A stretch of DNA of 64,000 bases, from the NCBI GenBank assembly GCA_007376145.1, contig VMFP01000004.1:6988-70987 (forward strand). Direction: 5' to 3'. The stretch comes from Parcubacteria group bacterium Gr01-1014_38 (GTDB lineage Bacteria; Patescibacteriota; Andersenbacteria; UBA10190; CAIZMI01). The position numbers and the translations under genes are program-made. Within the stretch, counting starts at the first letter, position 1; every line of letters begins with the position of its first letter. The notes under the pieces are model-generated. The model searched no databases. It was not told the origin of the DNA and was given only the letters and a program-made list of their open reading frames with translations. This document shows, in pieces, positions 1-38,279 of this stretch.

Positions 1-1308
1 ATAGTTGGTAACCCGCCCTTCATTCGATATCAATACCTCCCAAAGGATTTTCAGCAAAGAGCAGAGGAAGTTTTTGAAAATTTGGATTTACCATTTACGA
101 AACATGCCAACGCTTGGGTACCTTTTGTTTTAGCTTCTATGGCTCTACTGCGCCCCGGTGGTCGTCTCGCAATGGTAGTGCCAGCCGAGATTATGCATAT
201 CACGCATGCTCAACCCCTAAGGTCTTATTTAGGAAAAGAATGCCGCAGACTAGTAATCGTTGATCCGGAGGAACTTTGGTTTAGCGATACACTTCAAGGC
301 GCTGTTCTTCTTCTTGCTGAAAAAAAAGGTAGTCCCGCAGACAAAGCGGAAGGTGTTGGTATTTACCCAGTTAAGCAAAAAGAATTTCTCAATACTGATC
401 CTGAAATTATTTTCTCTGCTCCTAAATCATTAAATGGCAGAACGATCGCTGGAAAATGGACTTATGCACTCTTGGATCGCTCTGCCCGTTCTTTGTTGGA
501 TAACCTATCTAAACATCCGAATGTGCATCATTTTAAGGATATTGCAGAAGTAGATGTTGGGATTGTTACAGGTGCAAATAACTATTTTCTCGTCTCCGAT
601 GAAACTGTGGAGGAATTCGGCTTATCAAAATGGGCTCATCCTATGTTCGGACGAAGCAAGCACTGCCCTGGAGTTATTTATGACGAGTATCAACACCGAA
701 TGAATAAAGAGGAGGGCAAGCCAGCAAATTTTATTTGGTTTTCGGATGATTCTGTGAGTAGATACGTTTCCGCTCAAAAATATATAGACTACGGAGAGGA
801 ACAAAATCTTCATACACGATATAAATGCCGAGTTCGTGATCCTTGGTATTCAGTCCCCTCCGTCTACACTACGGAAATCGGGATGCTCAAAAGATCGCAC
901 GATGCGCCAAGACTCATACTCAATAAAATTGGAGCTTTTACTACTGATACGGCTTACCGAATTAGTGCTCACGGCGTGGCTAATAAGCGCCTAGTGGGAT
1001 CTTTTATTAACTCTTTAACGGCACTAAGCGCTGAACTCGAGGGACGTCATTATGGAGGTGGAGTATTAGAGTTAGTGCCGTCCGAAATTGAGAAACTACT
1101 CATCCCATTACCGGAATTAGCAGTGAATCTTACAGAACTGGACAAGGATGTTAAAACTTTACCGATGGTGGATGTTTTAGAGCAACAGGATAAGAAAATT
1201 TTAAGCAGCTTAGGGCTGACAAAATCTGAGCAGAATCTACTAGTAAATAACTGGCAAAGACTCCACGACAGACGCCAGAGGGTTTCGAGCGATTCCGAAA
1301 TCGCTTAG
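1..1308 (+). CDS. N6-adenine DNA methyltransferase (gamma-class, Eco57I/TaqI-like), 5' partial at window edge
   Basis: Reading frame is open from nt 1 and translates IVGNPPF (motif IV NPPF) followed by about 430 aa consistent with a target-recognition region. Codon usage is AT-rich relative to the rest of the window. The 3' end overlaps the convergent PLD nuclease gene by 4 nt. Confidence 0.7.
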   Translation: MVGNPPFIRYQYLPKDFQQRAEEVFENLDLPFTKHANAWVPFVLASMALLRPGGRLAMVVPAEIMHITHAQPLRSYLGKECRRLVIVDPEELWFSDTLQGAVLLLAEKKGSPADKAEGVGIYPVKQKEFLNTDPEIIFSAPKSLNGRTIAGKWTYALLDRSARSLLDNLSKHPNVHHFKDIAEVDVGIVTGANNYFLVSDETVEEFGLSKWAHPMFGRSKHCPGVIYDEYQHRMNKEEGKPANFIWFSDDSVSRYVSAQKYIDYGEEQNLHTRYKCRVRDPWYSVPSVYTTEIGMLKRSHDAPRLILNKIGAFTTDTAYRISAHGVANKRLVGSFINSLTALSAELEGRHYGGGVLELVPSEIEKLLIPLPELAVNLTELDKDVKTLPMVDVLEQQDKKILSSLGLTKSEQNLLVNNWQRLHDRRQRVSSDSEIA

Positions 1309-2477
1309 TCAATCTCCAGTACAAATCGTCCCTGATCCGCCTCATCTCTATAGAGGGACAAGGTACGTCCGATCAAATCTGGACGTGAGACGTATTCGCG
1401 TATAGGACCCCAACTCAAGCGCGTCATAGCGTTTCGTTGCTGATATGTACGACTGTTCGTATCGGTGCTATGCCTAATTTGTAGTGGAAACTCTCCGTAA
1501 TATATTCCTTTGATAATTAACTGAAAACGAGCCTCCGCTTCCTCCACGCTAACCGTTGCGCGAGGGGTCCACTGAAGGTGGGCAAAAGCTGCATCGCGAA
1601 AGTAGTGTCTGTGATCTATCGCTTCATCTAAAAGACCTTTATCTAGGTTTATAGAACCAGTTGCGTGCGTGCCTCTCTCATGAGGAATATTAAGATCTCG
1701 CTCTGTTAAGGCCTTGCTTTGCCAGACAAGCTCAAGATTGGTTGCGGCTTGGGTTTGAGGTTGTCCTTGGGGAACGTGGCCAACAGCTCGGCGGATTACT
1801 GGTTCTGATCGTGCACGCCGTGACGCACGAGATAGTGGTATAACATCAAGCCGAATGCGTGAAATCGGGTCATTGGAGGGCCTTGATGCGGTAACCGCGG
1901 GGCGTGGAGGCAGAGTTTCCGCCTCGTCGAGTAGGCGGCCACTGTTTTGTAATCTATCCAGCTCTAATGCACCTCGAATTATGAAAATATGTTCAGGATA
2001 TCTTCCGGGTAATTCGGTAAACTGCTCCTGAATTTCGCTGACGAATTCGCGATCGGATTGTTCATCTAGATTCAAATCGAGAGCCAAACTAGCCTCGATG
2101 TTATTGTTCAGCCCGCCGAGGGTTAGATTAGCACTGCCAACAAGCAAGCGTGCGTGTTGCGCACCTCTTGATAAATATAGCTTCGGATGAAAAATAACAC
2201 CCCGCGCTCCAGTATCTACAACGTAAACTGAAACTCCCAGTTCTAATAATCGAGCGAGTCCTTGGCGAGAGGTTATATCATTTCGTATGCCCGAGAAAAC
2301 TTTTGTTTTTGATGCGAAAGGGCGCAGATTATTTTCAATAAGACGTACCCCGTCTTCGTTTATAAAAGCAACACTAAGAACAATCTCCTCAATATCTGGA
2401 ATCTCAATTACGTGTCTGATAGCATCAATGTGATTCCGAGTTGTAAATCCCTGAAAAATAAAATCTTTACTCGCCAT
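1305..2477 (-). CDS. PLD/HKD-family nuclease, putative restriction endonuclease (BfiI/NgoAVII-like) with extra C-terminal domain
   Basis: HKD motif 'IFHPKLYLSRGAQHARLLVGSANLT' (HxK...GSxN). Most plausible start is the ATG at 2477..2475 (MASKDFIFQG); the track ORF extends further 5' into rpsI. AT-rich like the MTase. The start lies 9 nt downstream of the rpsI stop. Confidence 0.65.
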   Translation of the reverse strand: MASKDFIFQGFTTRNHIDAIRHVIEIPDIEEIVLSVAFINEDGVRLIENNLRPFASKTKVFSGIRNDITSRQGLARLLELGVSVYVVDTGARGVIFHPKLYLSRGAQHARLLVGSANLTLGGLNNNIEASLALDLNLDEQSDREFVSEIQEQFTELPGRYPEHIFIIRGALELDRLQNSGRLLDEAETLPPRPAVTASRPSNDPISRIRLDVIPLSRASRRARSEPVIRRAVGHVPQGQPQTQAATNLELVWQSKALTERDLNIPHERGTHATGSINLDKGLLDEAIDHRHYFRDAAFAHLQWTPRATVSVEEAEARFQLIIKGIYYGEFPLQIRHSTDTNSRTYQQRNAMTRLSWGPIREYVSRPDLIGRTLSLYRDEADQGRFVLEID

Positions 2478-2485
2478 GCTATCGT

Positions 2486-2914
2486 TTACCGCTTCTGCCA
2501 CTGTGGCGCCCGGCGGGCGCGCTTGAGTCCAGGCTTTTTGCGTTCCTTTTCTCGCGGGTCGCGGGTGAGCATGTCGGTGTCGCGCAGCGGTTTGCGGAAG
2601 CCTTCTTCCTGCTTTTCGAGCGCACGGGCGATGCCGAGCTTCACGGCACCAGCCTGCGCGTGAATCCCTCCGCCGCTTACCCGTACCGACACATCGAATT
2701 TTCCCCAACTGCCGGTGATCTCAAACGGCTGGCGGACGGGAGTTTGGAGTGCGACGATCGGGAAATACTCCTCCCACGGTCGCTGATTAATAAGGAAGGT
2801 CGTGGCGTCCTTGTCCTTGCCGCCACCCAAACTTCCTGCCGGGAGGAGACGCACCCGAGCGACGGCGGTTTTCCGTCTCCCCACGCCTTCAACGTACCGA
2901 GCTTGGTCAGGCAT
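2486..2914 (-). CDS. rpsI: 30S ribosomal protein S9
   Basis: Translation ends ...KKPGLKRARRAPQWQKR, which matches the S9 family along its full length. Confidence 0.95.
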   Translation of the reverse strand: MPDQARYVEGVGRRKTAVARVRLLPAGSLGGGKDKDATTFLINQRPWEEYFPIVALQTPVRQPFEITGSWGKFDVSVRVSGGGIHAQAGAVKLGIARALEKQEEGFRKPLRDTDMLTRDPREKERKKPGLKRARRAPQWQKR

Positions 2915-3341
2915 TGGCTCCTCCTTTCTGCGCCAGGTGTGGATGCTCCGCGCCTTGGTAGAGCTTTAAGCGAAGAATCATCCGATGGCGCAGGCGGTTC
3001 TTCGGGAGCATGTTCCAAATCGCGTCCCGCACGACGGTACGCGAGTCACGCTCGAGGCGTTTACGGAGCGAGAGAATTCGGACGGCGCCGGGCTTCCGCT
3101 GCGTGTGGCGCATATAGACTTTCGTCTCTCTTTTGGTTCCCGTGACGCGAACACGGTCGGTATTCGTGACGACCACGATGGCGCCCGTATCACGGTACGG
3201 GACCCACTGGGGATGATCTTTCCCGCGAAGGGCGATGGCAACCTCGGTCGCCAGGCGCCCGAGGACGTGTTCCTCCGCGTTGTAGAACCGCCAGGGACGG
3301 TGGGCCTCTGACGGTTGGCTCGTACGCTTGGGAGCAGTCAT
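2907..3341 (-). CDS. rplM: 50S ribosomal protein L13
   Basis: L13-like sequence (…WRFYNAEEHVLGRLATEVA…). Start chosen at ATG 3341 (MTAPKRT); the track ORF extends to 3386. Confidence 0.9.
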   Translation of the reverse strand: MTAPKRTSQPSEAHRPWRFYNAEEHVLGRLATEVAIALRGKDHPQWVPYRDTGAIVVVTNTDRVRVTGTKRETKVYMRHTQRKPGAVRILSLRKRLERDSRTVVRDAIWNMLPKNRLRHRMILRLKLYQGAEHPHLAQKGGANA

Positions 3342-6620: not shown

Positions 6621-6845
6621 TTAGGAGCGTGCGTCGAGACGCTGGATGATTCTCCCGCGCGTGAGATCGTAGGGGGAGAGTTCGACGGTCACCCGGTCAC
6701 CGGGAAGGACTCGAATGCGGTGCACCCGCATGCGCCCGGAGATGTGCGCCAGCACTTCGTGTCCTCCCTCCGCTTCGACTCGGAACGTCGCGTTGGGAAG
6801 ATTCTCTTTCACGACCCCAGTCAGTTGGATCGTGTCCTTCGCCAC
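6621..6845 (-). CDS. infA: translation initiation factor IF-1
   Basis: [40 protein letters not shown]… S1-like IF-1. Confidence 0.95.
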
Positions 6846-7017: not shown

Positions 7018-8526
7018 TCACGGTTGGGTTGCCACGTCGATGTGGATATTCCGGCGAAGCGAGGGAATGCGCTTGATCCAGACCGGCGAGAGACGAACCT
7101 CTGCGGTGCGCACGCCGGGAATCGCGCGGAGGAACGCGGCAGCATCATCCGCGGTTCTGCCTTGGAGCCGCTCACGCAGCTCATCGAAGTTGAGACGCGG
7201 GATCAGCGGGGTTTCTGAATGGAGCGAGAACTCGGTTCTCCCGTGGTCCCAGCGCACGTCGACGACCCGAAGGTCCTCAAAGGAGCTTTTCCGGACCGGA
7301 TCTTTCTCGTTCCCGATTCGCTGCTGAAGCAGATCGGTCAGAAATGCCTGGAGCGACGCAGCATCCGCGGTGAACGCCTCGCCGCGAACCGTGGTCCGAA
7401 TTCGGAAGGACTCTGCATCGGTCCCGACGGGGGGAGAGATTTCCGCCTCGCCAACGACCACGCGAGAAAGCTCCGGGCGCGAAAAGGACACCTGCTCCTG
7501 CCTCGAATGGGGCGTGGGCGCGGTACGCGCCTCACGTTGTATGAGTTCCAGGAGTTTGCGCTCGGCGTTCTCGCGAAGTGCGGTGGTACCCCGCTCAACG
7601 TCTGTGGTCGCGAGCTGGCGCACCAGCCGGTCAGTTCCGCCGTGCAGCGGACGCACGATTTCCCCGTAGAGAAGTCGACGGGATTCTGCCGGAAGCGCGG
7701 GTATGACGAGCCGCTGCGGGTCAAGATTTGCCTTGCTGCCTCCCTCCTCCGCCCGCACGGCAACCGACGCACGGCCCAAGGCTGGAACAATGACGTCGCG
7801 CTGCGTACGCACCACCACCCCCGACGTGCCCTGGAGCCGCGTGCGTGCTTTGATCCCCTGCTGGGCCGCCGTCTGGTTCACGATGTCGACCACGCCCTCG
7901 GCACGCGCTCCTTTCTCGACGGTGGTGTGAACGGGGAATTCCTCTTCGACTGCTTCCTCGATGCGGAGGAGGCGCGCGGGGTGTGTTCCGGTATCGCGTT
8001 GAGGTTCGCGCACACTCGCATCCAGTCGCAGGGTGAGATCAGCCGCAAATGGCTCGGTCGCGAGGACGAGACGGACGCGTGCCCGCGGCACCACGAACGT
8101 CACGACGCCGGTGAGAAGCATACCAGTGAGAACTGCGAAGACCGCCAGGGTCGCACGACCCCTCGGCGTCACGATGGGAAACCGCCGCCAGGGGAGCAAA
8201 GGGAGTTCACGGGGTCCTCCGGGGAGCAGGCGCCGCCTCCGGAAACTGGAAGAACCCGCCCGCTCCCGCGGCCCACGCTGATCAGCGCTGACCGTGGCGT
8301 GCCGTACTGCACGGTCAGCGAGCTGAAAGGTAATGTCCTTTCCAAAGTCTGCAGCGGTCGCTTGGAGGAGTCGGCGGACCAGCGGATCCGCCCGCAGAAC
8401 GGGATGTTGCCGGCAGTCGATTACGACGTGCGGGGCGGGAACTCGTTGGATCTTCTCCAGGATATCCGGCAGATCATCCGAGGCGGGGATGCGTAAGACG
8501 GGTGCCGTGCTCTGACTACTTGGCAT
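7018..8526 (-). CDS. hypothetical protein with a single transmembrane helix and a large C-terminal domain (possibly PilN/PilO-like)
   Basis: Long ORF with one hydrophobic helix (LAVFAVLTGMLLTGVVTFVV). The track ORF (to 8658) overlaps the upstream gene by about 140 nt; the internal ATG at 8526 was chosen to minimise overlap, so the start is uncertain. Confidence 0.4.
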   Translation of the reverse strand: MPSSQSTAPVLRIPASDDLPDILEKIQRVPAPHVVIDCRQHPVLRADPLVRRLLQATAADFGKDITFQLADRAVRHATVSADQRGPRERAGSSSFRRRRLLPGGPRELPLLPWRRFPIVTPRGRATLAVFAVLTGMLLTGVVTFVVPRARVRLVLATEPFAADLTLRLDASVREPQRDTGTHPARLLRIEEAVEEEFPVHTTVEKGARAEGVVDIVNQTAAQQGIKARTRLQGTSGVVVRTQRDVIVPALGRASVAVRAEEGGSKANLDPQRLVIPALPAESRRLLYGEIVRPLHGGTDRLVRQLATTDVERGTTALRENAERKLLELIQREARTAPTPHSRQEQVSFSRPELSRVVVGEAEISPPVGTDAESFRIRTTVRGEAFTADAASLQAFLTDLLQQRIGNEKDPVRKSSFEDLRVVDVRWDHGRTEFSLHSETPLIPRLNFDELRERLQGRTADDAAAFLRAIPGVRTAEVRLSPVWIKRIPSLRRNIHIDVATQP

Positions 8527-28845: not shown

Positions 28846-29796
28846 TCACGCTCTCGAGGAGAAGGTGGCACCAGCGCGGGCGAGAAGACGAGAGCGTTTC
28901 TCACTGAACGTAGGAAGAAGCCGAATCAATTCCGGCAACGCTGGCCACAGTGTGGGCGTGAACAGCCACTGGAAACCGCGGGCGGCGCTTTCAAGGGCTA
29001 TCCACGGCGCATGGCGAATGAGCACGCGCGTCGGAACGTTTTTGATAAGGACGAGAAAGTAATTCCGCCACGAGAGTCGCGCAACAGGCGGATCCTTCGC
29101 CGTATCCACCCGTACCGTGCGGACGTGGGTTGCGCGCGCATCCTGCGCGCCCACAATCTCCCAGCCTCGAAGCCTGAGCCGCCAAGACAAATCCACGTCC
29201 TCCCGGTATGCGAAAAGATCCTCATCGAACACTTCCCCATCGAGTGCGACATCGTGAAGCGCTCGTCGGCGGAGGAACGCAGCTGCCCCGGTAAACCCCC
29301 ACGGCTGCGCCAGCGACCTTGAGGGAACTGCGGAAAGCGTCTGATCCTCGTACTGGTTCACTGCCCGGAGGCTTGGCAAGAGCCGAGTGCCATAGGAGTC
29401 GATGATCGTCGCGTCTCCCTGCTCCGTACTTCCTCCTTCCTGCTTCCTGAGTAAAAGCGGCGCCACCGCTCCAACCTGCTCAGCGGAAAACCCCTTCAAG
29501 CCCTGCTCGACAAAATCAGGAGCGAGCACCACGTCAGGGTTGAGCACAATCACAACCTCAGAATTCGGCAGTGCACGGAATCCGTCATTGTGCCCACCGC
29601 TGTACCCGCGATTTGTTGTATTGGCGACAATCCGCACGGCGGGGAACTTTTCTCGAACGAATTCGACCGAACCGTCGGTTGAAGCGTTATCAATGTAGAC
29701 GACCGGCACTGACACCGTTTGCTGGAAGCAGGACCGAAGACAGGACTCGAGGTAGTGCCGGTGGTTCCGCCCCAGAACCTGAATGTGCGCCGTCAT
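28846..29796 (-). CDS. glycosyltransferase family 2
   Basis: ATG at 29796 (MTAHIQVLGRNHR…) overlaps the upstream gene's stop (ATGA). YIDNASTDGS motif. Confidence 0.8.
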   Translation of the reverse strand: MTAHIQVLGRNHRHYLESCLRSCFQQTVSVPVVYIDNASTDGSVEFVREKFPAVRIVANTTNRGYSGGHNDGFRALPNSEVVIVLNPDVVLAPDFVEQGLKGFSAEQVGAVAPLLLRKQEGGSTEQGDATIIDSYGTRLLPSLRAVNQYEDQTLSAVPSRSLAQPWGFTGAAAFLRRRALHDVALDGEVFDEDLFAYREDVDLSWRLRLRGWEIVGAQDARATHVRTVRVDTAKDPPVARLSWRNYFLVLIKNVPTRVLIRHAPWIALESAARGFQWLFTPTLWPALPELIRLLPTFSEKRSRLLARAGATFSSRA

Positions 29797-31205
29797 GACC
29801 GACTTCGTGCCCCCGCAACAAGACCTGCAAATGTCCAAAAGTAGAGGTTGGCTGGGAACATATCCGTCACATCAAGAAAGAGCCAGAGGACTGCAAGACC
29901 ACAGACTGCCGCGGTCGCGGCCACGCCAATCGCGCGAGTTTCCGGATCGGTTGCGTGCCGGAGCGCGAGGAGTCCAAGCCTCACGAGATGCGCGGCAATC
30001 CACCCGACGATAACGAGACCGATTGCGCCTTGCTCTACCCACGTCTTCACCACGCCGTTATCCACGAACGTGCGAGCTTTCGCAACTTGGACCTCCTGCG
30101 CGCCAGCCGACACGATGTCGTACAGCGAAATCTCTGCCGTGCGCTGCAACAGCGTGGTCGTATCGCCGAGCCCTTCTCCGATAACCGCGCCGACATTCGA
30201 AATTCCCACCAGTGAACCGGCAGCAATCTCGAGACGGGTCTTGTTGCTTTGGTACGCTGGATCCGCGACGGCACGGACAAACTGCCGAACGCGCGGGACA
30301 GCGAGCACGGCACTGCCGAAGAGAACCATCGTGAGAAACGCGGCTCCCACTGCCCGGGGCGCCAAGGCCACTCGCGGCAGCACTGCCGCACTGATGAGCG
30401 CAACGGGAACGGCGATCCACGCGCTGCGCGAATACGTGAGGGTAGTCGCAACAAGGCCAGCGGCGGTGAGGATCCCTGCGCCGAGCCGGAGTCCTCGCGG
30501 CAGTCCTCGGATTCCCGTTACGGCCGCCGCGAGTGCGAGCGTGAAGACGAGGTATCCTCCGAGGTGATTCGGGTGAGCGAGCACGCTGGAGACGCGCGGA
30601 ATCCAGACCTGACGTGCGGCATCAAACCGGAGGACCATGCTGTCCGGAAACTGCAGCCGCTGAATTCCTGCGAGGAGGAGAATGAGTCCCGCGGTGCCGA
30701 GGAAAACCGTGAAAAAAGTCCGCTGCCGCTCGGTGGTGTGTATCTGCCGCGCCGCAATGACGAGAAGCGGGATATAGAGGAGGAGATCGCGGAGCCGGAG
30801 AAGTCCGAGCGCGAAGGCATCCGCGCGAACGAACGTGACGAGATCCCACGCGACAAGCGCTAGCACCGGAACCCGAAGCGCGGGGGGGAGGAGCGACCCC
30901 CCTCCGCGGAGCGACTGCAGGAAGAGTGTGAGAATCACGACATCCTTCAAGACGGTGAGGGGCCCGAGAACCACCGTTGCCTTGAGGATAAGCAGAAACG
31001 GCGCGGTGGCGATCAGCAGAAGGAACGCTGGCCATGGGTATCGCCACGTCCCAACAGCCACCCAGGCGGCGGCGAGAAATAGCAGTCCAGCTTGCGCACT
31101 AAAGAACAACCCGAGGAACAGCGCCGTGGCGCCAACCCCAAGCATCGCCAGAAGTGCCGTTCCTCCGAGCGGCTGGCGGAGTGCCACGAGGAGAGAAGCG
31201 ATCAT
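29793..31205 (-). CDS. O-antigen ligase/polymerase-like (Wzy_C) polytopic membrane protein
   Basis: Multi-TM protein with a periplasmic loop containing …TYSRSAWIAVPV…. Start ATG at 31205 overlaps the upstream stop. Confidence 0.75.
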   Translation of the reverse strand: MIASLLVALRQPLGGTALLAMLGVGATALFLGLFFSAQAGLLFLAAAWVAVGTWRYPWPAFLLLIATAPFLLILKATVVLGPLTVLKDVVILTLFLQSLRGGGSLLPPALRVPVLALVAWDLVTFVRADAFALGLLRLRDLLLYIPLLVIAARQIHTTERQRTFFTVFLGTAGLILLLAGIQRLQFPDSMVLRFDAARQVWIPRVSSVLAHPNHLGGYLVFTLALAAAVTGIRGLPRGLRLGAGILTAAGLVATTLTYSRSAWIAVPVALISAAVLPRVALAPRAVGAAFLTMVLFGSAVLAVPRVRQFVRAVADPAYQSNKTRLEIAAGSLVGISNVGAVIGEGLGDTTTLLQRTAEISLYDIVSAGAQEVQVAKARTFVDNGVVKTWVEQGAIGLVIVGWIAAHLVRLGLLALRHATDPETRAIGVAATAAVCGLAVLWLFLDVTDMFPANLYFWTFAGLVAGARSRS

Positions 31206-32101
31206 ACGCGACGGACGCTCGGCGGCTTCCGTGAAAGTGAGGCGATGAGTGCCGTACCGAGGCTCACTGGCACGAGGGTGGAAAGCCCGATTGCCGCCCA
31301 CCAGCCCTGATGTTTCCACGTGTACCGAAGGGCACTGCGCGAAAACTGCCACGCGCGCCAGAGCGGAGAGACTTGGGCGAACGACGTCGCGCGATCATGG
31401 ACAACCTCCGCAGATGGCGTAAACCACGTTTCCCAGCCGGCCAACTTTGCGCGACGACAGTAGTCCACTTCCTCGAACCAAATCCAATACCCTTCGTCGA
31501 GAAGGCCAATGACGTCAACGACGCCGCGCCGGATGGCGAAGCACGCCCCCATCACTTGGTCAACCTTGGTGTCGCGGCCGTACGGAAAGTCCGCCATTTC
31601 GTAACGGCGTATTGCTGGAAAAGAAGTTTGCAGCCGCGCAAGACGGGTGAGAAGTAAGGCGAGCACGATCGGCGTCGGGAACCGACGAACCGATCGCTGC
31701 AGACTACCATCCGTATTCAGTAATTTCCCACCGACAATGCCGGCTTTCGGGTGAGTCGCAAAGAAGTTCATGAGTGCCGAAAAACTTCCGGGTCGCGGTT
31801 CTGTATCTGGGTTGAGAAGGAGAAGAATGTCGCCGCGTGCTTGCCGAAGGGCGATGTTATTTGCGCGGGCGAAGCCGACGTTTTTCGGAAGTGAAATATG
31901 AGTAAAAGGTTGGTAACTCTCGCGTGCGTGTGTCAGTGAATTATCCCGCGAGGCATTATCCACGACGAAGACTTCGTACTTGAAGGGTACGCACGTAGCT
32001 GCTCCATCCACAACCTTGAGAGCCGCGTACGGCAGCGCATCGAGACATTTCCGGAGCAGTGGTCCGGTATTCCAATTCACGATGATGATGGACAATTTCA
32101 T
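31202..32101 (-). CDS. glycosyltransferase family 2
   Basis: MKLSIIIVNWNTGPLL…VFVVDNASRDNS. Confidence 0.85.
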   Translation of the reverse strand: MKLSIIIVNWNTGPLLRKCLDALPYAALKVVDGAATCVPFKYEVFVVDNASRDNSLTHARESYQPFTHISLPKNVGFARANNIALRQARGDILLLLNPDTEPRPGSFSALMNFFATHPKAGIVGGKLLNTDGSLQRSVRRFPTPIVLALLLTRLARLQTSFPAIRRYEMADFPYGRDTKVDQVMGACFAIRRGVVDVIGLLDEGYWIWFEEVDYCRRAKLAGWETWFTPSAEVVHDRATSFAQVSPLWRAWQFSRSALRYTWKHQGWWAAIGLSTLVPVSLGTALIASLSRKPPSVRRV

Positions 32102-33198
32102 GCGCCTGCTTTTTCAATCACCTCGGCAGTCTGTTCCGCCGCTCGGTCCCACGTGAAGTGAGACGCGCGTACGTGCCCCTTCGCAACCATGTCCTGCCGG
32201 AGTGAGGAATCGCGGAGAATACGGAGGATCGCGCTCGCCATCGCCGACGGATCCGAGGGATCAACAAGAACCGCCGCATTGCCGACAACCTCTGGAAGCG
32301 AGGAAGTGTTCGAAGTAATCACCGGCGTTCCGGCCGCCATTGCTTCTAACACTGGCATACCGAAGCCCTCCGAGAAACTCGGGAGCACAAAGGCAGCAGC
32401 CATGGAGTACAAAGCTGCAAGATCGTCACGTGGAACACGTCGGAGAAGATGAATCGAATTTCGAACGGACGACGTTTCAATCCGAGCGAGAATCTGTGTT
32501 TCTTTCCACTCCCCGCCACCCGCGAAGACGAGATGCACGGCAGGCTCCGAGCGCTTCAGTTCCTCGAACGCAGTGATGAGACCAACAATGTTTTTCCGGG
32601 GTTGGAGCGCCCCAACAAACAACACATATCGCTCAGGAAGCTGGTATCGCTCCCGAATCCCTTCCCTTTCCTCGGCATTCTGAAATTGCTCTTGCGCCAC
32701 TCCGTGATGCACCACGGTGATGTCGGTCGGGGAGCGTCCATACGTACTCACTACATCGTCCTTCGTGTACTGCGAGACGGCGATGAGCTGGGTCGCGTTT
32801 CGCACCGCGTGCCGCGTGAAAAAAAGGAGGAGTGCGCGGTTCGCAAGAGTGTATGTCGCTGGATAATGGATGAACTCGAGATCATGGACCACCGCGACCG
32901 TCTTCATCGTTCGCGGTCGTATGAGAGGCAGCATCTGAATCGGCATGAACAAGACATCCGGCCGATCGCGACGAAGTGCTGCGGCAAAGAATCGCTGCGT
33001 CCAAAACGGACTTCCCGGGACCACACGAATTTCACCTACGATCGTCACTCCACGTGGCGACGCTGGAAGATATGTCGTGACCTCGTGTCCGCGGTCGCGC
33101 AACAGGCGAGAAAGCCGCGGGAGAAGCTCTCCGGCATACACGCTCGGCCCCTCGAAGCGGTCCGCCGCGAGGTCCGAGCCATCAAGCGCAATCCGCAC
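32098..33198 (-). CDS. glycosyltransferase family 4
   Basis: GT4 C-terminal motifs (…PSFSEGFGMPVLEAMAAGTPVITS…). Likely start is GTG at 33198 (VRIALDGSDL…, the typical GT4 MRIALD start); the track's TTG at 33276 is upstream. Confidence 0.8.
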   Translation of the reverse strand: MRIALDGSDLAADRFEGPSVYAGELLPRLSRLLRDRGHEVTTYLPASPRGVTIVGEIRVVPGSPFWTQRFFAAALRRDRPDVLFMPIQMLPLIRPRTMKTVAVVHDLEFIHYPATYTLANRALLLFFTRHAVRNATQLIAVSQYTKDDVVSTYGRSPTDITVVHHGVAQEQFQNAEEREGIRERYQLPERYVLFVGALQPRKNIVGLITAFEELKRSEPAVHLVFAGGGEWKETQILARIETSSVRNSIHLLRRVPRDDLAALYSMAAAFVLPSFSEGFGMPVLEAMAAGTPVITSNTSSLPEVVGNAAVLVDPSDPSAMASAILRILRDSSLRQDMVAKGHVRASHFTWDRAAEQTAEVIEKAGA

Positions 33199-33217
33199 GC
33201 GACGCAGCCTAGGTGAG
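33179..33217. repeat. direct repeat copy 1 (GT4 start region: CCATCAAGCGCAATCCGCACGCGA-N2-NAGCCTAGGNGAG)
   Basis: 39-nt segment spanning the GT4 GTG start; it recurs at 34051-34089 (3 mismatches), and its 21-nt core recurs at 35676-35696. Confidence 0.85.
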
Positions 33218-33320
33218 TTTCTTCCTTTTGACAACGGCTCTATGTGTTGAATGGGTTGAACGGGCCGAGCAACCAATTGACAAAATCCTGTCCGGCAGAT
33301 ATACTGAAAGCACTAAACGT

Positions 33321-33356
33321 GGGGCGGATATTTCGCATGTCCGCCCCGTTTTTATT
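33321..33356 (-). terminator. rho-independent terminator immediately after the NYN stop codon (bidirectional-looking)
   Basis: GGGGCGGA-N11-TCCGCCCC stem (33321-33328 / 33340-33347), flanked by an A-tract upstream and TTTTTATTT downstream on the plus strand. Confidence 0.6.
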
Positions 33357-33987
33357 TCTTGGGCTCCTCGAACCTTAAGGCTTTTTCGAGCCGAACAAAG
33401 TCTCGGAAGTTCGCACCAGCAAATTTGCGGATCTCACGTGCAGTCCTAGAACCACGTGCGAGAATAATGATTTCCTCTCTTTCCTCACGAAGATACTTAA
33501 GGACCGGAAGGAAATCTCCGTCCCCCGAGAGAATAACGGCACGATCAAAATTTTCTTTCTCTTTCATAAGCCGGAAGGCCATATCGACGTCACAATTCGC
33601 TTTGCGTTTCGTGCTGCCGTCGTCCTGGTCGTACAACTTCACGGGTTTTAAGTAGAGCTCGTACCCGAAGCTCTGGAGCTTTCGGTAAAAGCGCACTCGC
33701 TGGAGATGTCGCCCAAGAAGGAGTAATTCCGCCTCGTTGAGTTCTTTGCCTTCGTTCTTAATACGCTCAGTGAGATAGTCTTCCAAGTCTTCAAGCGGTA
33801 CCGACTCAAACGCAAGGTAATCAAACGGAAACGTGTGAATCTCAACCCCACCAAAATACAGCGCGCGGGTTACCCCGTACTTCTTGCGCAGGTACTGCAG
33901 AAGTTTTCGATAATCAATTTTCCAACCAAGACTCTTCTCGCCTCCATAGAAGAGGTTTGATGCATCGATAAACGCAAGTGTTCTCAC
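33352..33987 (-). CDS. NYN-domain (LabA-like, PIN-fold) ribonuclease
   Basis: AFIDASNL…CDVDMA…ILSGDGDF acidic motifs of the NYN family. GTG start at 33987 overlaps the stop of the upstream short ORF (GTGA). AT-rich codon usage. Confidence 0.8.
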   Translation of the reverse strand: MRTLAFIDASNLFYGGEKSLGWKIDYRKLLQYLRKKYGVTRALYFGGVEIHTFPFDYLAFESVPLEDLEDYLTERIKNEGKELNEAELLLLGRHLQRVRFYRKLQSFGYELYLKPVKLYDQDDGSTKRKANCDVDMAFRLMKEKENFDRAVILSGDGDFLPVLKYLREEREEIIILARGSRTAREIRKFAGANFRDFVRLEKALRFEEPKK

Positions 33988-34050
33988 GCCGAGAAGTGTA
34001 ACATTGCTTTGTATTTCGCGTGTGCTATGCCCGCTTCCCTAGATTGCAAC

Positions 34051-34089
34051 CCATCAAGCGCAATCCGCACGCGAGGTAGCCTAGGCGAG
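34051..34089. repeat. direct repeat copy 2 (GT4 start region)
   Basis: Matches copy 1 at 36 of 39 nt. Its in-frame GTG opens a 28-codon ORF (VRIALDGLQSREAGIAHAKYKAMLHFSA*) that is translationally coupled to the NYN gene. Confidence 0.85.
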
Positions 34090-34208
34090 GCTTGCTCTGT
34101 TGGCAACCGACGATCTTGACGTGGGCAGTCCTGCAATATATCCTCGGCGTGGTGTTGTCCTTTCTCACGCCGCAACAAGCGCGGCATAGTTCTCACGGAG
34201 TATGTCAC

Positions 34209-35171
34209 ATGCCTGACCCAAGCACGCAGCGACCACCACACCCTCTCCTAACCCGAGAACTGCGTCTGATCCGGACCTGGAAGGAGTGGAAAAAACTCTG
34301 GGACGAGGAGGTGCATCCGGAACGCCTGCTCGGCCTTCTCCACTTCGGCTTCAATGTCACAGAGTTTGACGCAGGAGAGTGGCCTGAACGAGTTCTCCTC
34401 TACCTTTCCATCGCAGATGGACATGCGTGGGAAATCTCGAAGCCAGGAACGCAGAAATATGAAATCTCCTGGTCAACCTTCGGAAAACCCACGACATGGT
34501 CAAAGGTGCGTCAGCTGATCGCCCAAAAAGCGTTCAAGGAACTCTGTCAGCACCTCTTCAAATACACCCGGTCGCATCATGATGAAGAACCGTCCTGGCT
34601 TCAGCCACTCACCCAGAACTCCTGCCAACTCTTGGATGCGGTACTCGCGTTCTTCCTCCTGCATGACACGCTCGAACCTCAGCTACGCAATCTCCCGCGA
34701 GACGACAAGAGTCATGAGTACGGACTGACCGTCTCCTTCCTCCTCAGCCTGTGTGACTTCGGATGGAAGCTTCGCACGCTCCGCGAGTATGGAGCCGATA
34801 TAGAAGTCGCGGAGAACCTCCGACAGCGCCGTCCGCAGTTCATTCGCGTACTTGCAGGTCTCAAAAGGCTCGATCTCGTGACGACGAAGAGCATGGAACT
34901 CGACGAGGCGGACTGCGACATGCTACGGAAGATCGCACTCGGCACGGAGCTCTACCTCCCCACCGAGCCGAACTGGGGAGAGAAGCACCGGCTTCCAAAA
35001 ACGCTGGAAGAAGCGGTCGCCGGCGGATCTTCTGCAGCCAGACTCCTACTCCTGCATAAGATAAAACTCCAGGAGAAAGCCCGCTTTGCGCAGCTTCGAA
35101 AACTCGCAGCCACGCAGGAAGATGCTTCTCTACAGATCGAACGACTAAAAACTTCGCAGACAAAGTCCTAA
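34209..35171 (+). CDS. hypothetical protein (320 aa), no recognisable domain
   Basis: ATG at 34209 preceded by GGAG. The frame is open from TTG 34092, which would add a hydrophobic N-terminus. Followed by a terminator. Confidence 0.55.
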   Translation: MPDPSTQRPPHPLLTRELRLIRTWKEWKKLWDEEVHPERLLGLLHFGFNVTEFDAGEWPERVLLYLSIADGHAWEISKPGTQKYEISWSTFGKPTTWSKVRQLIAQKAFKELCQHLFKYTRSHHDEEPSWLQPLTQNSCQLLDAVLAFFLLHDTLEPQLRNLPRDDKSHEYGLTVSFLLSLCDFGWKLRTLREYGADIEVAENLRQRRPQFIRVLAGLKRLDLVTTKSMELDEADCDMLRKIALGTELYLPTEPNWGEKHRLPKTLEEAVAGGSSAARLLLLHKIKLQEKARFAQLRKLAATQEDASLQIERLKTSQTKS

Positions 35172-35194
35172 ATGGAGGCACAAATGCAAATGCT

Positions 35195-35222
35195 CCCCGC
35201 CGCAATCGCGACGGGGTTTTTT
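35195..35222 (+). terminator. rho-independent terminator of the 320-aa gene
   Basis: CCCCGCCGC-AATC-GCGACGGGG followed by TTTTTT. Confidence 0.6.
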
Positions 35223-35257
35223 CTTCTCATCGTTGCAATCCTCTGCCCCCCAAAACA

Positions 35258-35297
35258 CGAGTACAAAAGAAACCGCCGCGAGGAAATCCTCGCGGCG
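35258..35297 (-). terminator. rho-independent terminator of the 96-aa minus-strand gene
   Basis: Perfect 10-bp stem CGCCGCGAGG-AAAT-CCTCGCGGCG, with a U-tract on the minus-strand RNA (plus-strand AAAAGAAA at 35264-35271). Confidence 0.55.
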
Positions 35298-35304
35298 TGG
35301 GGGT

Positions 35305-35595
35305 TCACGATTTGGGAAGTCTGACAATACGATTCCCCGCAATCACCCATGGGCTCGGGTCGAAGCGAACAACAAACGACGGGACGGGAGGCCAGGCGCG
35401 AGCAGGATCTTCTTCGATGACTGTCCCGGCAAAGTCCTGCTCGCACTCTTTCTCAACAACATGGGCACTCACCATTCGTATTCCCTTCTCCCCGTGAGGA
35501 TAGATGGCCCCAATCACCCATCCTTCCAGGAGAAGCTCGACGATAGGGGTGCCCGGGAGCACAGAGCGCTCCGCGATTCGGAAATCAATAGGCAT
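35305..35595 (-). CDS. hypothetical protein (96 aa)
   Basis: ORF flanked by a terminator and preceded by repeat copy 3 about 80 nt upstream. Confidence 0.4.
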   Translation of the reverse strand: MPIDFRIAERSVLPGTPIVELLLEGWVIGAIYPHGEKGIRMVSAHVVEKECEQDFAGTVIEEDPARAWPPVPSFVVRFDPSPWVIAGNRIVRLPKS

Positions 35596-35675
35596 CAGTC
35601 TCTCCTTTCAGTGTCTTTCGTTCTGGGGATCGAAGGTGAAATGAACAAGCTACACAAGACGCTCAAAAATCCGAA

Positions 35676-35696
35676 CCATCAAGCGCAATCCGCACG
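35676..35696. repeat. direct repeat copy 3 (21-nt core CCATCAAGCGCAATCCGCACG)
   Basis: Exact 21-nt match to the cores of copies 1 and 2. Encodes a mini-ORF VRIALDGSDF* on the minus strand. Confidence 0.8.
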
Positions 35697-35780
35697 GGCA
35701 CACTCTACGCAGAGCAGCCGTTCCTGACAAGGCACAGGAGAAGATGAAATATTCCTTCCGGCAATTCCTCATTTCCAAGA

Positions 35781-35804
35781 AAAGTGCTTTCATATAAGAG
35801 AGCA
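35781..35804. repeat. palindromic repeat A (AAAGTGCTTTCATATAAGAGAGCA) containing the TrpR-like GTG start
   Basis: Imperfect palindrome TGCTTTCAT/AAGAGAGCA. Matches 36211-36234 at 21 of 24 nt. Confidence 0.8.
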
Positions 35805-36206
35805 GTGAGCAGAACTTACCGAAGAAAACTTGATGCACCACGCGCTCTCACACTGATTGAGCAAACGTTCCACACGGCCTCCCGTCAGAAGAATTTTCGG
35901 CGCTTTCTTACGGAGTTCTTTACCGTGAACGAGCGCGACACTTTTGCTCAACGCCTCCGTATCGCCTGGTTTCTTCATGCGGGCCACAGCTTCCGACTTA
36001 TTCAAGACGAAACGGGTGCCTCGTTTCGTACCATTACGACTCTCGACCGCTGGCTGAAAAAGCAGAATCCGCGCTACCGGCGGATCATTCCGCTCCACAG
36101 ACATAGACACCGAAAGCACGCCGCCCAACGTTTTCCAGGAGACCGGCCATTGCCCGGGAGCATCAAAGCATTCACACGGAGTCTCCTCGGCACGGATATT
36201 CTCTAA
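35784..36206 (+). CDS. TrpR/YerC-YecD-like helix-turn-helix regulator
   Basis: …NERDTFAQRLRIAWFLHAGHSFRLIQDETGASFRTITTLDRWLKK… fits the TrpR-like HTH fold. GTG start lies inside the palindromic repeat. Confidence 0.55.
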   Translation: MLSYKRAVSRTYRRKLDAPRALTLIEQTFHTASRQKNFRRFLTEFFTVNERDTFAQRLRIAWFLHAGHSFRLIQDETGASFRTITTLDRWLKKQNPRYRRIIPLHRHRHRKHAAQRFPGDRPLPGSIKAFTRSLLGTDIL

Positions 36207-36210
36207 ATTC

Positions 36211-36234
36211 AAAGTGCTCTCTTACAAGAGAGCA
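36211..36234. repeat. palindromic repeat B (AAAGTGCTCTCTTACAAGAGAGCA)
   Basis: Perfect 9-bp arms TGCTCTCTT-AC-AAGAGAGCA. Re-encodes VLSYKRA, the first 7 codons of the TrpR-like gene. Confidence 0.8.
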
Positions 36235-36274
36235 CATTCAAGTTTTCTAATTCACGCTACGACCGTCGGGATCG

Positions 36275-37069
36275 CTATTTCCACGCCAGGATGGCCCGGA
36301 CGCTTCTTTCGTCTTTGAGCTTTCCGTTTGGGCTAAGTCCGCGTAGCATCCTCGCTAGTTCCTTTTCAAATATCTTTATCCTGTCTCCGAATAACTCTCT
36401 GCGAGCAAATGATGTGGAGTAGAGATTACCAATGATCTGGTGAATGTTCCGCTCCACGCGCTGTTTATAATTGTGAGTTTCAATCTTCGAAAACGAGCAT
36501 TCCATGATGATGTCCTCAAACCGACGTGTATCAGTGGGAAACGTCCCCGTGCCCGCACGGCGCTCCTCTCCGAGATACGTCTTAACGAGTTTCACGATTC
36601 CTTGCTGCCAGTCCTTATCGCTCTTCCAGATATCCTGGCGGCTCACCACCGCAAGTCCGCCACCCGGCATGAGAAGTTCATAAACCTTTGCAAGAACCTT
36701 TTTCTTCTCCATCCAATGGAGCGCGGTGCCGATCGTCACGAGTCTGAACGAGCCAGGACGGTCTACGTACTCCTCCGCCGTGCTCTTCACCCATGAGATA
36801 TCCCTCGCGCCCGCTTTCGCGGCGCGCTGCTTCCCCTCCTCGATCATATCCGCATCGGGCTCAACTGCCACCACTTCCTCAAAGTCCCTGCACAGCAGCA
36901 CGGCGAGTTCTCCCGTTCCCGTTCCTAAGTCGAGGAGTCGGCCAGTGCCGTCCAGGGAAAATTTCTTTCTGAGCAATTCAAAGAAGCTCTGTGGATACGG
37001 TACTCGATAACGGGCATAGTACCAGGCTGCCCCTCTGAAGAGTGTCTCGTCGTATACGCTCGTGCTCAT
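36275..37069 (-). CDS. class I SAM-dependent methyltransferase
   Basis: Motif I LDLGTGTGELAV and Methyltransf_11-like core. Confidence 0.85.
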   Translation of the reverse strand: MSTSVYDETLFRGAAWYYARYRVPYPQSFFELLRKKFSLDGTGRLLDLGTGTGELAVLLCRDFEEVVAVEPDADMIEEGKQRAAKAGARDISWVKSTAEEYVDRPGSFRLVTIGTALHWMEKKKVLAKVYELLMPGGGLAVVSRQDIWKSDKDWQQGIVKLVKTYLGEERRAGTGTFPTDTRRFEDIIMECSFSKIETHNYKQRVERNIHQIIGNLYSTSFARRELFGDRIKIFEKELARMLRGLSPNGKLKDERSVRAILAWK

Positions 37070-37076
37070 ATAGGGA

Positions 37077-38279
37077 CTAATCGGAAAGAAGATGTTCCAA
37101 CACAGTTACACGCATGTCCCACGTATGGCGCTTGGATTCTGCGATGCGGGCGTCCCTGCCTTCTGCGCCGCGCTCAAGCGCTTCTTGAATGCCGCGGGCG
37201 AACGCGTCCGCAGATGACGTGAGGGTCACAAGGTGGCGGTACGGCTCCAGCGACGGGAGACCAGACGCGACGATGGGTTTTCCGGCGGCGAGAAATTCCC
37301 AAAATTTGAGGGGAAAACTCGCGCGGTTATACGGGCTGTCGCGGTACGGAATGATCGCGACGTCAAACGCGTGCACGTAGCTTGGAACTTCCTCGCGCGG
37401 TTTTGGCCCGAGAAAGTGTACGTTCGAGAGCTGGCCAAGTTTTCGAACGCTTTCCGCGCCGCCGGTTCCGGAATAGTCTACTGGACCGATGAGGACGAAG
37501 TGCCACTCGGGGTGTTCACTGGCGATCTTCTGAAGCAATTCAACATCCACCTTATAGACATCGAGGGCTCCGACGGTCCCAATGCGCGGATGCGGAATGG
37601 CTGCAATATCGCGCGGCTCATGCGCGGGCCTTCCGGAAAACGCTTCAACGTCGGCGGCGTTGGGAACGAGCTGCACATTGCGATGAATTTTTGAGAATCG
37701 TTCAAGGAGTGGCGAAGTCGTCACGGAAATTACAGCCGCGCGCGCCGCAATCGCGCTCTCTTCTTTCTCAACGAGCGCCGAGTTTCTTTCTATCCCGGCT
37801 TGGACGCGATGATCATCCACACAGTCATAGACGACGCGAGACTTCGGAAAGTCATCGAGAAATTCTGCGGCTTCGGTGTCGTAGATCAAGAGGACCGGCT
37901 CTCGAAAACCGAGCTCCCACGCGTGCAAACGGACATGCCACGCATTCCACAGAACGTGATTCAGCCGTCCGACGAAGGGGATTCGGCGTGAACCGGGGAT
38001 GAGATTTGCTTGCGCCTGCACCCAGAGATTCGGCCGCACGCGCTGCGGCGCGACCTGGCGAAGAAGCCAGTGCCAGCCTCCGCCAAGGCTACGGCCGGTC
38101 TTCGACCAGCGGCCCCCGGGATACCGAAAGAGCATCCGAAGAAGAAACAGACGCGGTTCCACGTAGAGCACGCGCCAGCCGCGTTCGGCCAAACTCGTCG
38201 CAATGTGCTGGCGATTTGTCCAGAGCGGCGCGTCATAGAGCGCGCCGGCGAAGACGATGACGTCTTTCGAGTGATTCAT
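37077..38279 (-). CDS. glycosyltransferase family 4 (GT-B)
   Basis: C-terminal GT-B signature …FDVAIIPYRDSPYNRASFPLKFWEFLAAGKPIVAS…. Confidence 0.75.
   Translation of the reverse strand: MNHSKDVIVFAGALYDAPLWTNRQHIATSLAERGWRVLYVEPRLFLLRMLFRYPGGRWSKTGRSLGGGWHWLLRQVAPQRVRPNLWVQAQANLIPGSRRIPFVGRLNHVLWNAWHVRLHAWELGFREPVLLIYDTEAAEFLDDFPKSRVVYDCVDDHRVQAGIERNSALVEKEESAIAARAAVISVTTSPLLERFSKIHRNVQLVPNAADVEAFSGRPAHEPRDIAAIPHPRIGTVGALDVYKVDVELLQKIASEHPEWHFVLIGPVDYSGTGGAESVRKLGQLSNVHFLGPKPREEVPSYVHAFDVAIIPYRDSPYNRASFPLKFWEFLAAGKPIVASGLPSLEPYRHLVTLTSSADAFARGIQEALERGAEGRDARIAESKRHTWDMRVTVLEHLLSD

Follow-up and report, generated by a model that had tools for sequence, protein, structure and literature searches.

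A nuclease gene in a 64-kb stretch of DNA from Parcubacteria group bacterium Gr01-1014_38 (contig VMFP01000004.1, positions 6,988 to 70,987; hereafter the window) belongs, with one other gene, to an autonomous cassette of ~0.8 kb that occupies unrelated contexts across lineages of the candidate phyla radiation (CPR). The nuclease belongs to the NYN (PIN-like) family and is referred to here as NYN. Its partner is a convergent gene for a predicted structured RNA of ~45 nt, in which a near-consensus promoter, a covarying hairpin and an intrinsic terminator can be recognized. In the window the cassette forms an insertion of 811 nt between the two copies of a 61-nt target duplication, in a variable slot between two glycosyltransferase genes (GT4 and GT1) of a Parcubacteria surface-glycan cluster. 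The adjacent genes, encoding a 320-aa protein, a 96-aa protein and a TrpR-like regulator, are vertically shared residents of that slot. A preliminary description of this DNA had grouped NYN with these neighbours as a defence or toxin module carried as island cargo; it saw a real, intact and inserted nuclease but gave it the wrong partners, taking the small RNA gene, the real partner, for a terminator. Judged by sequence comparison, the NYN–small RNA cassette appears to be a new form of the theme of a nuclease with a cis-encoded RNA, and is widespread in CPR bacteria. The anatomy of the cassette has strong comparative support; from it we infer a function that is discussed in conditional terms below.

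A structured small RNA gene faces the NYN gene

The DNA directly 3′ of NYN was conserved in all lineages. On the strand opposite to NYN it carries a 5′ ACUAAAC tail, a 13-bp hairpin and a U-run (Table 1). The U-run overlaps the NYN stop codon and last codons in the window, and across loci it is the complement of the stop codon and the last Lys codons. Eighty further NYN loci were fetched for comparison (contigs and loci from other assemblies are given L numbers), and a text pattern found the motif on the opposite strand in 89 of 91 loci. A covariance model, R1, matched the window once, at the gene itself (68.6 bits, E 8e-11). Every NYN locus searched, including L095, which the text pattern had missed, and L100, had one copy and no more, next to NYN and antisense to it. 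The model found no match in eight NYN-less loci (L002–L006 and L014–L016).

The 51 distinct RNA sequences aligned without gaps. In the 13-bp helix 97.1% of cells were paired, as compared with 80.3% in shuffled alignments and 33–56% when partners were slid, and double changes occurred at nine of the 13 pairs (133 cells versus 35 in shuffles); none of 500 shuffles reached the observed values. Two pairs, A17–U29 and U18·G28, never varied, nor did the ACUAAAC tail, which is predicted to be single-stranded. G·U pairs made up 137 of the 663 paired cells, at which the NYN-sense strand would have A·C mismatches; that one-fifth of pairs are of this kind indicates that the structure has been selected on an antisense, plus-strand RNA. 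The window RNA folds with a minimum free energy of −21.2 kcal/mol (z −4.6), and its hairpin and U-run were also picked up by a terminator scan. Its predicted shape, a short 5′ single strand abutting a duplex, is that of a 5′-flap hairpin. Rfam release 15 contained no match to the RNA at E up to 10 within 33100–36300, and none at gathering score in the whole window; a literature search found no description of the NYN–RNA pair.

The RNA has its own promoter, with 11 of 12 consensus matches in the window. A TAnnnT −10 box lies exactly 6 nt before A1 of the RNA in 52 of 53 distinct loci, TG is present at −15/−14 in 42 of the 53, and TTGAC(A) lies 16–18 nt upstream of the −10 box; the spacer is not conserved in sequence, unlike the hexamers and the distance between them. 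Recognition by a protein, most simply NYN, is suggested by the unvarying tail and A–U/U·G step together with the exactly placed transcription start, because a cis-antisense RNA needs no conserved primary sequence. Pairing of the 5′ tail with the NYN translation start was considered and rejected: no conserved complementarity was found between the tail and the NYN 5′ region or translation start, where synonymous sites vary freely. A search of the window for other sites complementary to the tail gave nothing above chance.

The NYN gene also appears to be transcribed from a promoter within the cassette. Its −10 box in the window, TACACT, lies 7 nt before the GTG start codon, and across loci this distance is 6–8 nt; NYN mRNAs look leaderless. 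At many loci, including L026, L032, L025, L034, L059, L061, L081 and L092, a small hairpin with a T-run was seen 10–40 nt upstream of NYN, merging into a TG-extended −10 box (consensus ...GGCGRTTTTTTGGTAGAAT..., 6–8 nt before ATG). This hairpin looks like an insulator terminator fused to the promoter for a leaderless NYN mRNA.

The cassette is a discrete insert in the window and is flanked by duplications at some other loci

In a blastn comparison with relative L006, window 31008–33239 corresponded to L006 258–2471 and window 34051–35544 to L006 2411–3888. The segment L006 2411–2471, made up of the GT4 promoter region and the initial 27 nt of the gene, is thus present twice in the window, as a 61-nt duplication. 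The 811 nt between the copies contain only NYN, the RNA gene and their promoters; no recombinase or transposase gene lies within the insert, and no terminal repeats were seen. A GTTG microhomology is present at the window junction. As copy 1 serves GT4 and copy 2 keeps the promoter of the 320-aa gene, both host genes have remained intact. NYN was absent from this site in relatives L002–L006, which comprise three sister lineages (represented by L002, L005 and L006), and no other local direct repeat of this kind was found in the 64-kb window. Absence in relatives, bounding repeats and atypical composition, the marks of a genomic islet, were found together for 33240–34050 only; the 320-aa and 96-aa genes do not combine them.

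On the minus strand of copy 2, a 28-codon remnant of GT4 forms an open reading frame (ORF) from 34070 to 33984 (VRIALDGLQSREAGIAHAKYKAMLHFSA), whose TGA overlaps the GTG of NYN as GTGA. The duplicated GT4 promoter might thus offer a second route to NYN translation in this genome, by coupling.

Flanking duplications were also found elsewhere, of 126 nt (94% identity) at L034, 130 nt (88%) at L084 and 85 nt (98%) at L095, and inserts within duplications at NYN loci measured 726–970 nt. The flanking-repeat score exceeded the maximum of 150 mismatched controls at 10 of 56 distinct NYN loci. No target motif shared by the four duplicated sequences was noticed by eye. The inserts differ from transposons and insertion sequences in having no transposase, variable ends, and duplications that are both long (61–130 nt) and variable.

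The neighbours of NYN were wholly different between lineages: rplU, recR and dnaB in L007, genes for a PaaX-like protein and a CTP-transferase in Doudnabacteria, and others again in L012, L017 and L018. Within one lineage the context can be stable, the neighbours being the same in 22 Doudnabacteria contigs. Clustering of all ORFs from 90 NYN loci revealed no common family besides NYN itself, and thereby no common integrase-like family; relatives of the 320-aa or 96-aa protein were present in none of the 90. In a test for relocation, the neighbours of the L007, L017 and L018 NYN loci were searched for in the window and gave no matches. An integron origin is not indicated by this anatomy, in which promoters stand at both cassette ends, each NYN locus is solitary, with housekeeping genes around it, and no integrase-like family is shared; a reading of the hairpin itself as an attC site was rejected on the grounds of the promoters, the single-copy context and the restriction of G·U pairs to one strand.

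In L012 (Parcubacteria Gr01-1014_30), ~70-nt direct repeats that are 97% identical (6767–6834 and 7473–7541) flank two small genes (79 aa, and 86 aa with DUF3175) directly beyond the NYN–RNA cassette, forming another single-cassette insertion scar beside NYN.

NYN is a highly conserved, probably structure-specific nuclease

The 211-aa product of NYN scored 68.3 bits with Pfam NYN (PF01936; cut-off 24.2, E 1.4e-18, profile positions 3–138 of 145). Homologues formed 2956 clusters, the best 120 of which were 67–84% identical; the source names of these 120 include Doudna-, Wolfe- and Kuenenbacteria, Minisyncoccia and Parcubacteria. The acidic motifs FIDASN, CDVDM and SGDGDF, which the preliminary description had recognized as intact, were invariant in the 120 clusters, and the motifs containing D8, D133, D135, D155 and D157 were invariant there and in a further comparison of 28 sequences. 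In all, 72 of the 211 residues are invariant, and identity between lineages is star-like, at 67–80%. The AT-rich codon usage that had been taken to mark NYN out is real in that its G+C is 48% and its third-position G+C (GC3) 0.54, against GC3 of 0.62–0.75 in its neighbours and a window G+C of ~60%. As NYN G+C was 2–12 points under the locus average in every lineage examined (five other loci), however, the low value is partly intrinsic to this Lys/Glu/Phe/Tyr-rich family.

An AlphaFold2 model of NYN, with a predicted local distance difference test score (pLDDT) of 78, has a PIN-like core and two long inserted helices (residues 65–107). The nearest structures found with Foldseek were 2qip (9.4e-7), T5 D15 5hmm (3e-5) and 1xo1 (3e-4), and 2qip was also the best PDB match in a sequence search (4.5e-5). 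NYN is probably a Mg-dependent, structure-specific nuclease. Members of the family carry the JGI names LabA/DUF88. Matches in PADLOC-DB 2.0 were partial and at domain level (PDLC01154, 2.7e-9; HEC-09, 8.7e-8); NYN had no full-length match to a PADLOC system model, and no accompanying system genes were found nearby.

A phage or plasmid origin of the cassette was considered and rejected: the GenBank phage collection gave no NYN match, the IMG/VR viral-contig collection gave one (contig L100), and plasmids encode distant NYN proteins only (≤32% identity). The L100 match, at 1897–2280, is a shortened NYN ORF of 110 aa with 60% identity in its best segment, and the antisense RNA (39.9 bits) still adjoins it. 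The copy may be in decay, or L100 may be a CPR contig filed as viral.

Comparison with known systems

The structure 2qip, that of VPA0982, a LabA-like NYN protein of Vibrio parahaemolyticus, shares with the window NYN the PF01936 domain and the constellation of catalytic Asp residues. The two are nevertheless only 15% identical, and the window NYN has an extra segment of ~55 residues that includes the two long helices. Its clade is separate from other LabA-like NYN proteins and tightly conserved, with named members that are almost all CPR; the distant plasmid homologues mentioned above are proteobacterial. To our knowledge a dedicated small RNA has not been described for any LabA-like protein, and a literature search turned up none. 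The likeness to T5 D15 and other flap endonucleases (FEN; 5hmm and 1xo1) lies in a Foldseek probability of 1.0, in a helical insertion that the model places over the PIN-like core, and in the predicted form of the RNA, which would be that of the classic 5′-overhang hairpin substrate of FEN. The TM-scores are, however, low (0.42–0.45) and identity is 16–18%; an arch formed by the NYN insertion and an action of the enzyme on flaps are putative. What NYN has in common with PDLC01154 and HEC-09 is the C-terminal half of the NYN domain (residues 99–194); the remainder of the 310-position model is missing from the window protein, and no accompanying system genes are present.

Convergent type I toxin–antitoxin (TA) loci include par, encoding Fst and RNA II, of pAD1, and txpA/RatA and bsrG/SR4 of Bacillus subtilis. 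The NYN cassette resembles them in that a protein gene and a predicted short antisense RNA would face each other with 3′ ends overlapping through a shared bidirectional terminator, and in being compact, self-contained and variable in location; a convergent RNA gene that overlaps the NYN stop codon and 3′ end is predicted at every locus. It differs in that the protein is a soluble 211-aa nuclease rather than a small hydrophobic membrane peptide, and the RNA, at ~45 nt, has a strongly conserved primary sequence and no conserved pairing to the NYN translation start. The conserved adjacent small protein gene of a type II system has no counterpart among the 90 loci. In type III systems (ToxIN, CptIN and TenpIN), a structured RNA directly neutralizes the adjacent endoribonuclease; ToxN has a Kid/MazF-like fold, and the antitoxin is encoded as tandem repeats on the toxin strand, ahead of the toxin gene. 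By analogy, the logic proposed below for NYN, a structured RNA neutralizing a neighbouring nuclease, would be of the type III kind. The fold of the nuclease is different, however, and the RNA is a single unit located downstream on the opposite strand, no tandem repeats having been found near NYN.

Proposed function and its alternatives

The likeliest reading, which we put at slightly below even odds (about 0.45), is that NYN and the small RNA form a mobile pair in which the RNA controls the nuclease, as a TA-like or conflict module. On this proposal, which draws on sequence comparison, the small RNA would be a dedicated regulator of NYN, in its likeliest form an RNA antitoxin or inhibitor whose 5′-flap-plus-hairpin shape occupies the nuclease. 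Much like a type III antitoxin, the RNA would restrain NYN by occupying it or by being processed by it. The 3′ end of the NYN mRNA is fully complementary to the RNA, and antisense pairing there, of the kind known from par/Fst or txpA/RatA, would be a possible second layer of control. The pair would act as a self-contained, insulated module, able to move both horizontally and within genomes. A toxin-like or conflict-related role for NYN, as had been proposed earlier, stays plausible. The PADLOC profiles match NYN only in part, and its 320-aa, 96-aa and TrpR-like neighbours not at all.

Several observations weigh against this proposal. The 72 invariant residues and 67–80% star-like identity are unusual for a toxin, and NYN G+C tracks that of each host; together these point less to a selfish module that evolves fast than to long residence and a role that benefits the host or is a housekeeping one. 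The cassette matches neither type I systems, whose toxins are small membrane peptides, nor type III systems, in which the antitoxin RNA is repeated in tandem before the toxin. The RNA tail shows no conserved complementarity to the NYN 5′ region, and the PADLOC matches are at domain level. Flanking duplications are detectable in only about one-fifth of loci, and the insert ends are not fixed, lying 29–161 nt before NYN and 16–129 nt beyond the −35 box. The small RNA, its ends and any toxicity of NYN are all inferred.

The chief alternative is that NYN serves in housekeeping and that the RNA is its antisense regulator. NYN would then be a core CPR enzyme of RNA processing or a flap nuclease, the RNA a cis-antisense autoregulator or cofactor, the pair not selfish, and its differing locations the result of ordinary rearrangement. 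We consider this unlikely on balance, yet a serious contender: very strong purifying selection on NYN in Doudna-, Wolfe- and Kuenenbacteria, Minisyncoccia and Parcubacteria, a G+C that follows the host, stable neighbours in the 22 Doudnabacteria contigs, the near absence of NYN from phages, viral contigs and plasmids, and the JGI names LabA/DUF88 are all as it would predict. It accounts poorly for the absence of NYN at the orthologous site in three sister lineages, for a discrete insert with a target duplication in the window and flanking duplications at other NYN loci, for self-contained promoters and terminators at both cassette ends, and for wholly different neighbours in each lineage. A far simpler interpretation of the DNA 3′ of NYN is that there is no RNA gene: the hairpin would insulate NYN or terminate transcription in both directions, and the promoter-like boxes would be incidental or would drive a regulatory antisense read-through. 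The hairpin does directly follow the NYN stop codon, and the sequence after it on the NYN strand, GUUUAGU, is a weak U-tract. A terminator, however, needs no invariant ACUAAAC, no invariant U·G step and no −10 box (with its TG) fixed 6 nt away; the G·U pairs occur on the antisense strand only, and it is there that the proper U-run lies. We therefore regard this interpretation as very improbable.

The duplications themselves could be read as the work of the nuclease. NYN, with or without the RNA, might make staggered nicks that insert the cassette and leave long, variable duplications, which would make it a mobile element of a new, nuclease–RNA kind. Duplications of 61, 85, 126 and 130 nt around inserts that hold nothing but NYN and the RNA, their enrichment over controls, the lack of a recombinase or transposase in the insert and the FEN-like fold suggested by the model are consistent with such activity. 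Nevertheless, we know of no PIN/NYN transposase, the insert ends are not fixed, no terminal repeats were seen, the four duplicated sequences share no evident target motif, and the RNA tail, being invariant, is unsuited to the part of a variable guide. The same scars could be left by microhomology-mediated events, as the GTTG at the window junction might reflect, or by Campbell-type recombination of circles, and we think self-mobilization by NYN quite unlikely. A broader proposition, for which the odds are long though a little better, is that the cassettes represent an unrecognized class of nuclease–RNA element across CPR, in which an arch-bearing, FEN-like NYN would be checked or programmed by a 45-nt 5′-flap hairpin RNA and the 0.7–1.0-kb cassette would move itself, leaving 60–130-nt duplications, unlike any known transposase or integrase. 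Least tenable is the earlier model of a single defence or TA module comprising NYN, the 320-aa and 96-aa proteins and possibly the TrpR-like regulator, which is already contradicted by the data on co-occurrence. In its favour, the genes adjoin one another where G+C is lower, NYN has its partial PADLOC matches, and the content of the slot varies among relatives. But the 320-aa gene occurs without NYN in L002–L006, L015 and L016, the 96-aa gene in L006 and the TrpR-like gene in L002; no relative of the 320-aa or 96-aa protein accompanies NYN at any of the 90 loci; neither neighbour matches a PADLOC model; and the genes lie on different strands with separate promoters and terminators.

The CPR (Patescibacteria) have tiny genomes and almost no characterized regulatory RNAs or conflict systems. 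A nuclease that is 67–80% identical across the homologue clusters listed and always accompanied by the same structured RNA is a strong candidate for an important CPR function. The pair could be a core ribonucleoprotein, an RNA-antitoxin system whose toxin has a new fold, or a mobile element of a new kind. Given the clear covariation and the defined promoter, the RNA can be synthesized and tested directly against the purified protein, and the long flanking duplications provide a handle on how single genes insert into streamlined genomes.

The resident genes of the slot and the surrounding locus

Table 1. Features of the NYN locus, in window coordinates
Feature	Position	Strand	Remarks
Cassette insert, 811 nt relative to sister genomes	33240..34050	−	NYN upstream region, NYN, small RNA and its promoter; from blastn against L006
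NYN (PIN-like) nuclease gene	33352..33987	−	211 aa, GTG start; protein half of the cassette
Small RNA gene, convergent with NYN	33312..33358	+	predicted; 5′ tail ACUAAAC(GU) 33312–33318, 13-bp hairpin 33319–33349 with pentaloop UUCGC, U-run 33350–33358
Small RNA promoter	33277..33305	+	TTGACA, 17 nt, TATACT, then 6 nt to A1
Direct repeat, copy 1	33179..33239	+	reverse complement of GT4 start (GTG 33198, VRIALDG) and promoter region; serves the intact GT4
Direct repeat, copy 2	34051..34111	+	81% identical to copy 1 over 57 nt; leads on to ancestral intergenic DNA and the 320-aa gene promoter
Third copy of GT4 start	35670..35696	+	27 nt, 96%; upstream of the 96-aa gene
Gene for 320-aa all-alpha protein	34209..35171	+	large uncharacterized Patescibacteria family; belongs to the locus rather than to the NYN cassette
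Gene for 96-aa protein	35305..35595	−	three-member family; convergent with the 320-aa gene; terminator 35274–35297
TrpR/YerC-YecD-like regulator gene	35784..36206	+	Pfam PF01371 (57 bits), TIGR02531; not NYN-specific
SAM (S-adenosylmethionine)-dependent methyltransferase gene	36275..37069	−	Pfam Methyltransf_25/11; lineage-specific addition to the slot

The cassette lies in a long minus-strand surface-glycan cluster with GT2 genes, a Wzy-like polymerase gene, GT4, GT1, a flippase gene and SpoIID. As 29664–37469 is 100% identical in an independent Logan assembly (L001), the gene arrangement is not the artefact of one assembler. Between GT4(−) and GT1(−), the slot holds a single gene in L005, for 353 aa(+); genes for 324 aa(+) and 97 aa(−) in L006; genes for 323 aa(+), NUDIX(+) and the TrpR-like protein(+) in L002, L003 and L004; and, in the window, NYN(−), 320 aa(+), 96 aa(−), TrpR-like(+) and methyltransferase(−). 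The three ORFs of the preliminary description, for NYN and the 320-aa and 96-aa proteins, are real. Its account of island cargo holds for NYN, which is inserted here between target duplications, and fails for the neighbours, which NYN-less relatives share.

The 320-aa gene occupies the same position in L002–L006. More distant members of its family were found in L015 (5917–6978), among gyrB, miaA and parB, and in L016 (1286–2245), among nusA, an H+-PPase gene and the trigger factor gene (tig). A word-indexed search gave 14 matches to the family, as compared with 804 cluster representatives in a full profile search (372 below 1e-30); its members are ~300–360 aa long and were matched over their full length. 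Being fixed in NYN-less relatives and belonging to so wide a family, the 320-aa gene is not cargo that travels with NYN. The family comprises at least 804 clusters at 50% identity and is apparently restricted to Patescibacteria; HPL, LLH, ADG, KAF..LC and LEEA..GGS.AA are among its conserved motifs. A genome scan with a closer alignment of the family found only three loci. As described before, the protein has no detectable domain: Pfam, PADLOC, NCBIfam and PDB gave no match. Its AlphaFold2 model (pLDDT 82) is all-alpha with a long C-terminal helix, and no relative was found by fold or by sequence, which leaves a family of more than 800 clusters with neither a Pfam model nor a structural relative. 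An N-terminal extension from TTG 34092, suggested earlier, is not borne out; all homologues align from ATG 34209, and 34092–34208 is a conserved intergenic and promoter region in relatives.

The 96-aa protein is 68% identical to the 97-aa protein at the same position in L006, belongs to a family with only three known clusters, and had no match in Pfam, PADLOC or NCBIfam. The convergent terminators reported between its gene and the 320-aa gene were confirmed, on the minus strand by the terminator scan and on the plus strand by a hairpin with a T-run visible in the sequence at ~35195–35230. The regulator next door is TrpR-like as described, with no PADLOC match, and is 63% identical to the copy in L002. 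Its gene is bracketed by 24-nt sequences, at 35781–35804 and 36211–36238, that are both direct (88%) and inverted repeats; the second forms a terminator-like hairpin, and the pair could be operator sites or another insertion scar. The methyltransferase gene has no counterpart in L002, L005 or L006. Its product matched PADLOC mad2 (2.6e-20) over the SAM-binding domain only, probably a generic domain match. Across the five genes, Pfam, PADLOC and NCBIfam revealed nothing beyond the NYN, TrpR and methyltransferase domains.

The three copies of the GT4 start are identical at 21 of 21 nt, as against none expected by chance. The third stands at the left edge of a segment (~35545–37117) that contains the TrpR-like and methyltransferase genes and is absent in L006; it bounds no definable insert. 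No tRNAs were found in the window. The first 2–3 kb of the window (1–3000) have a G+C of 43–52%, well under that of the remainder (~60%), and may be another foreign segment.

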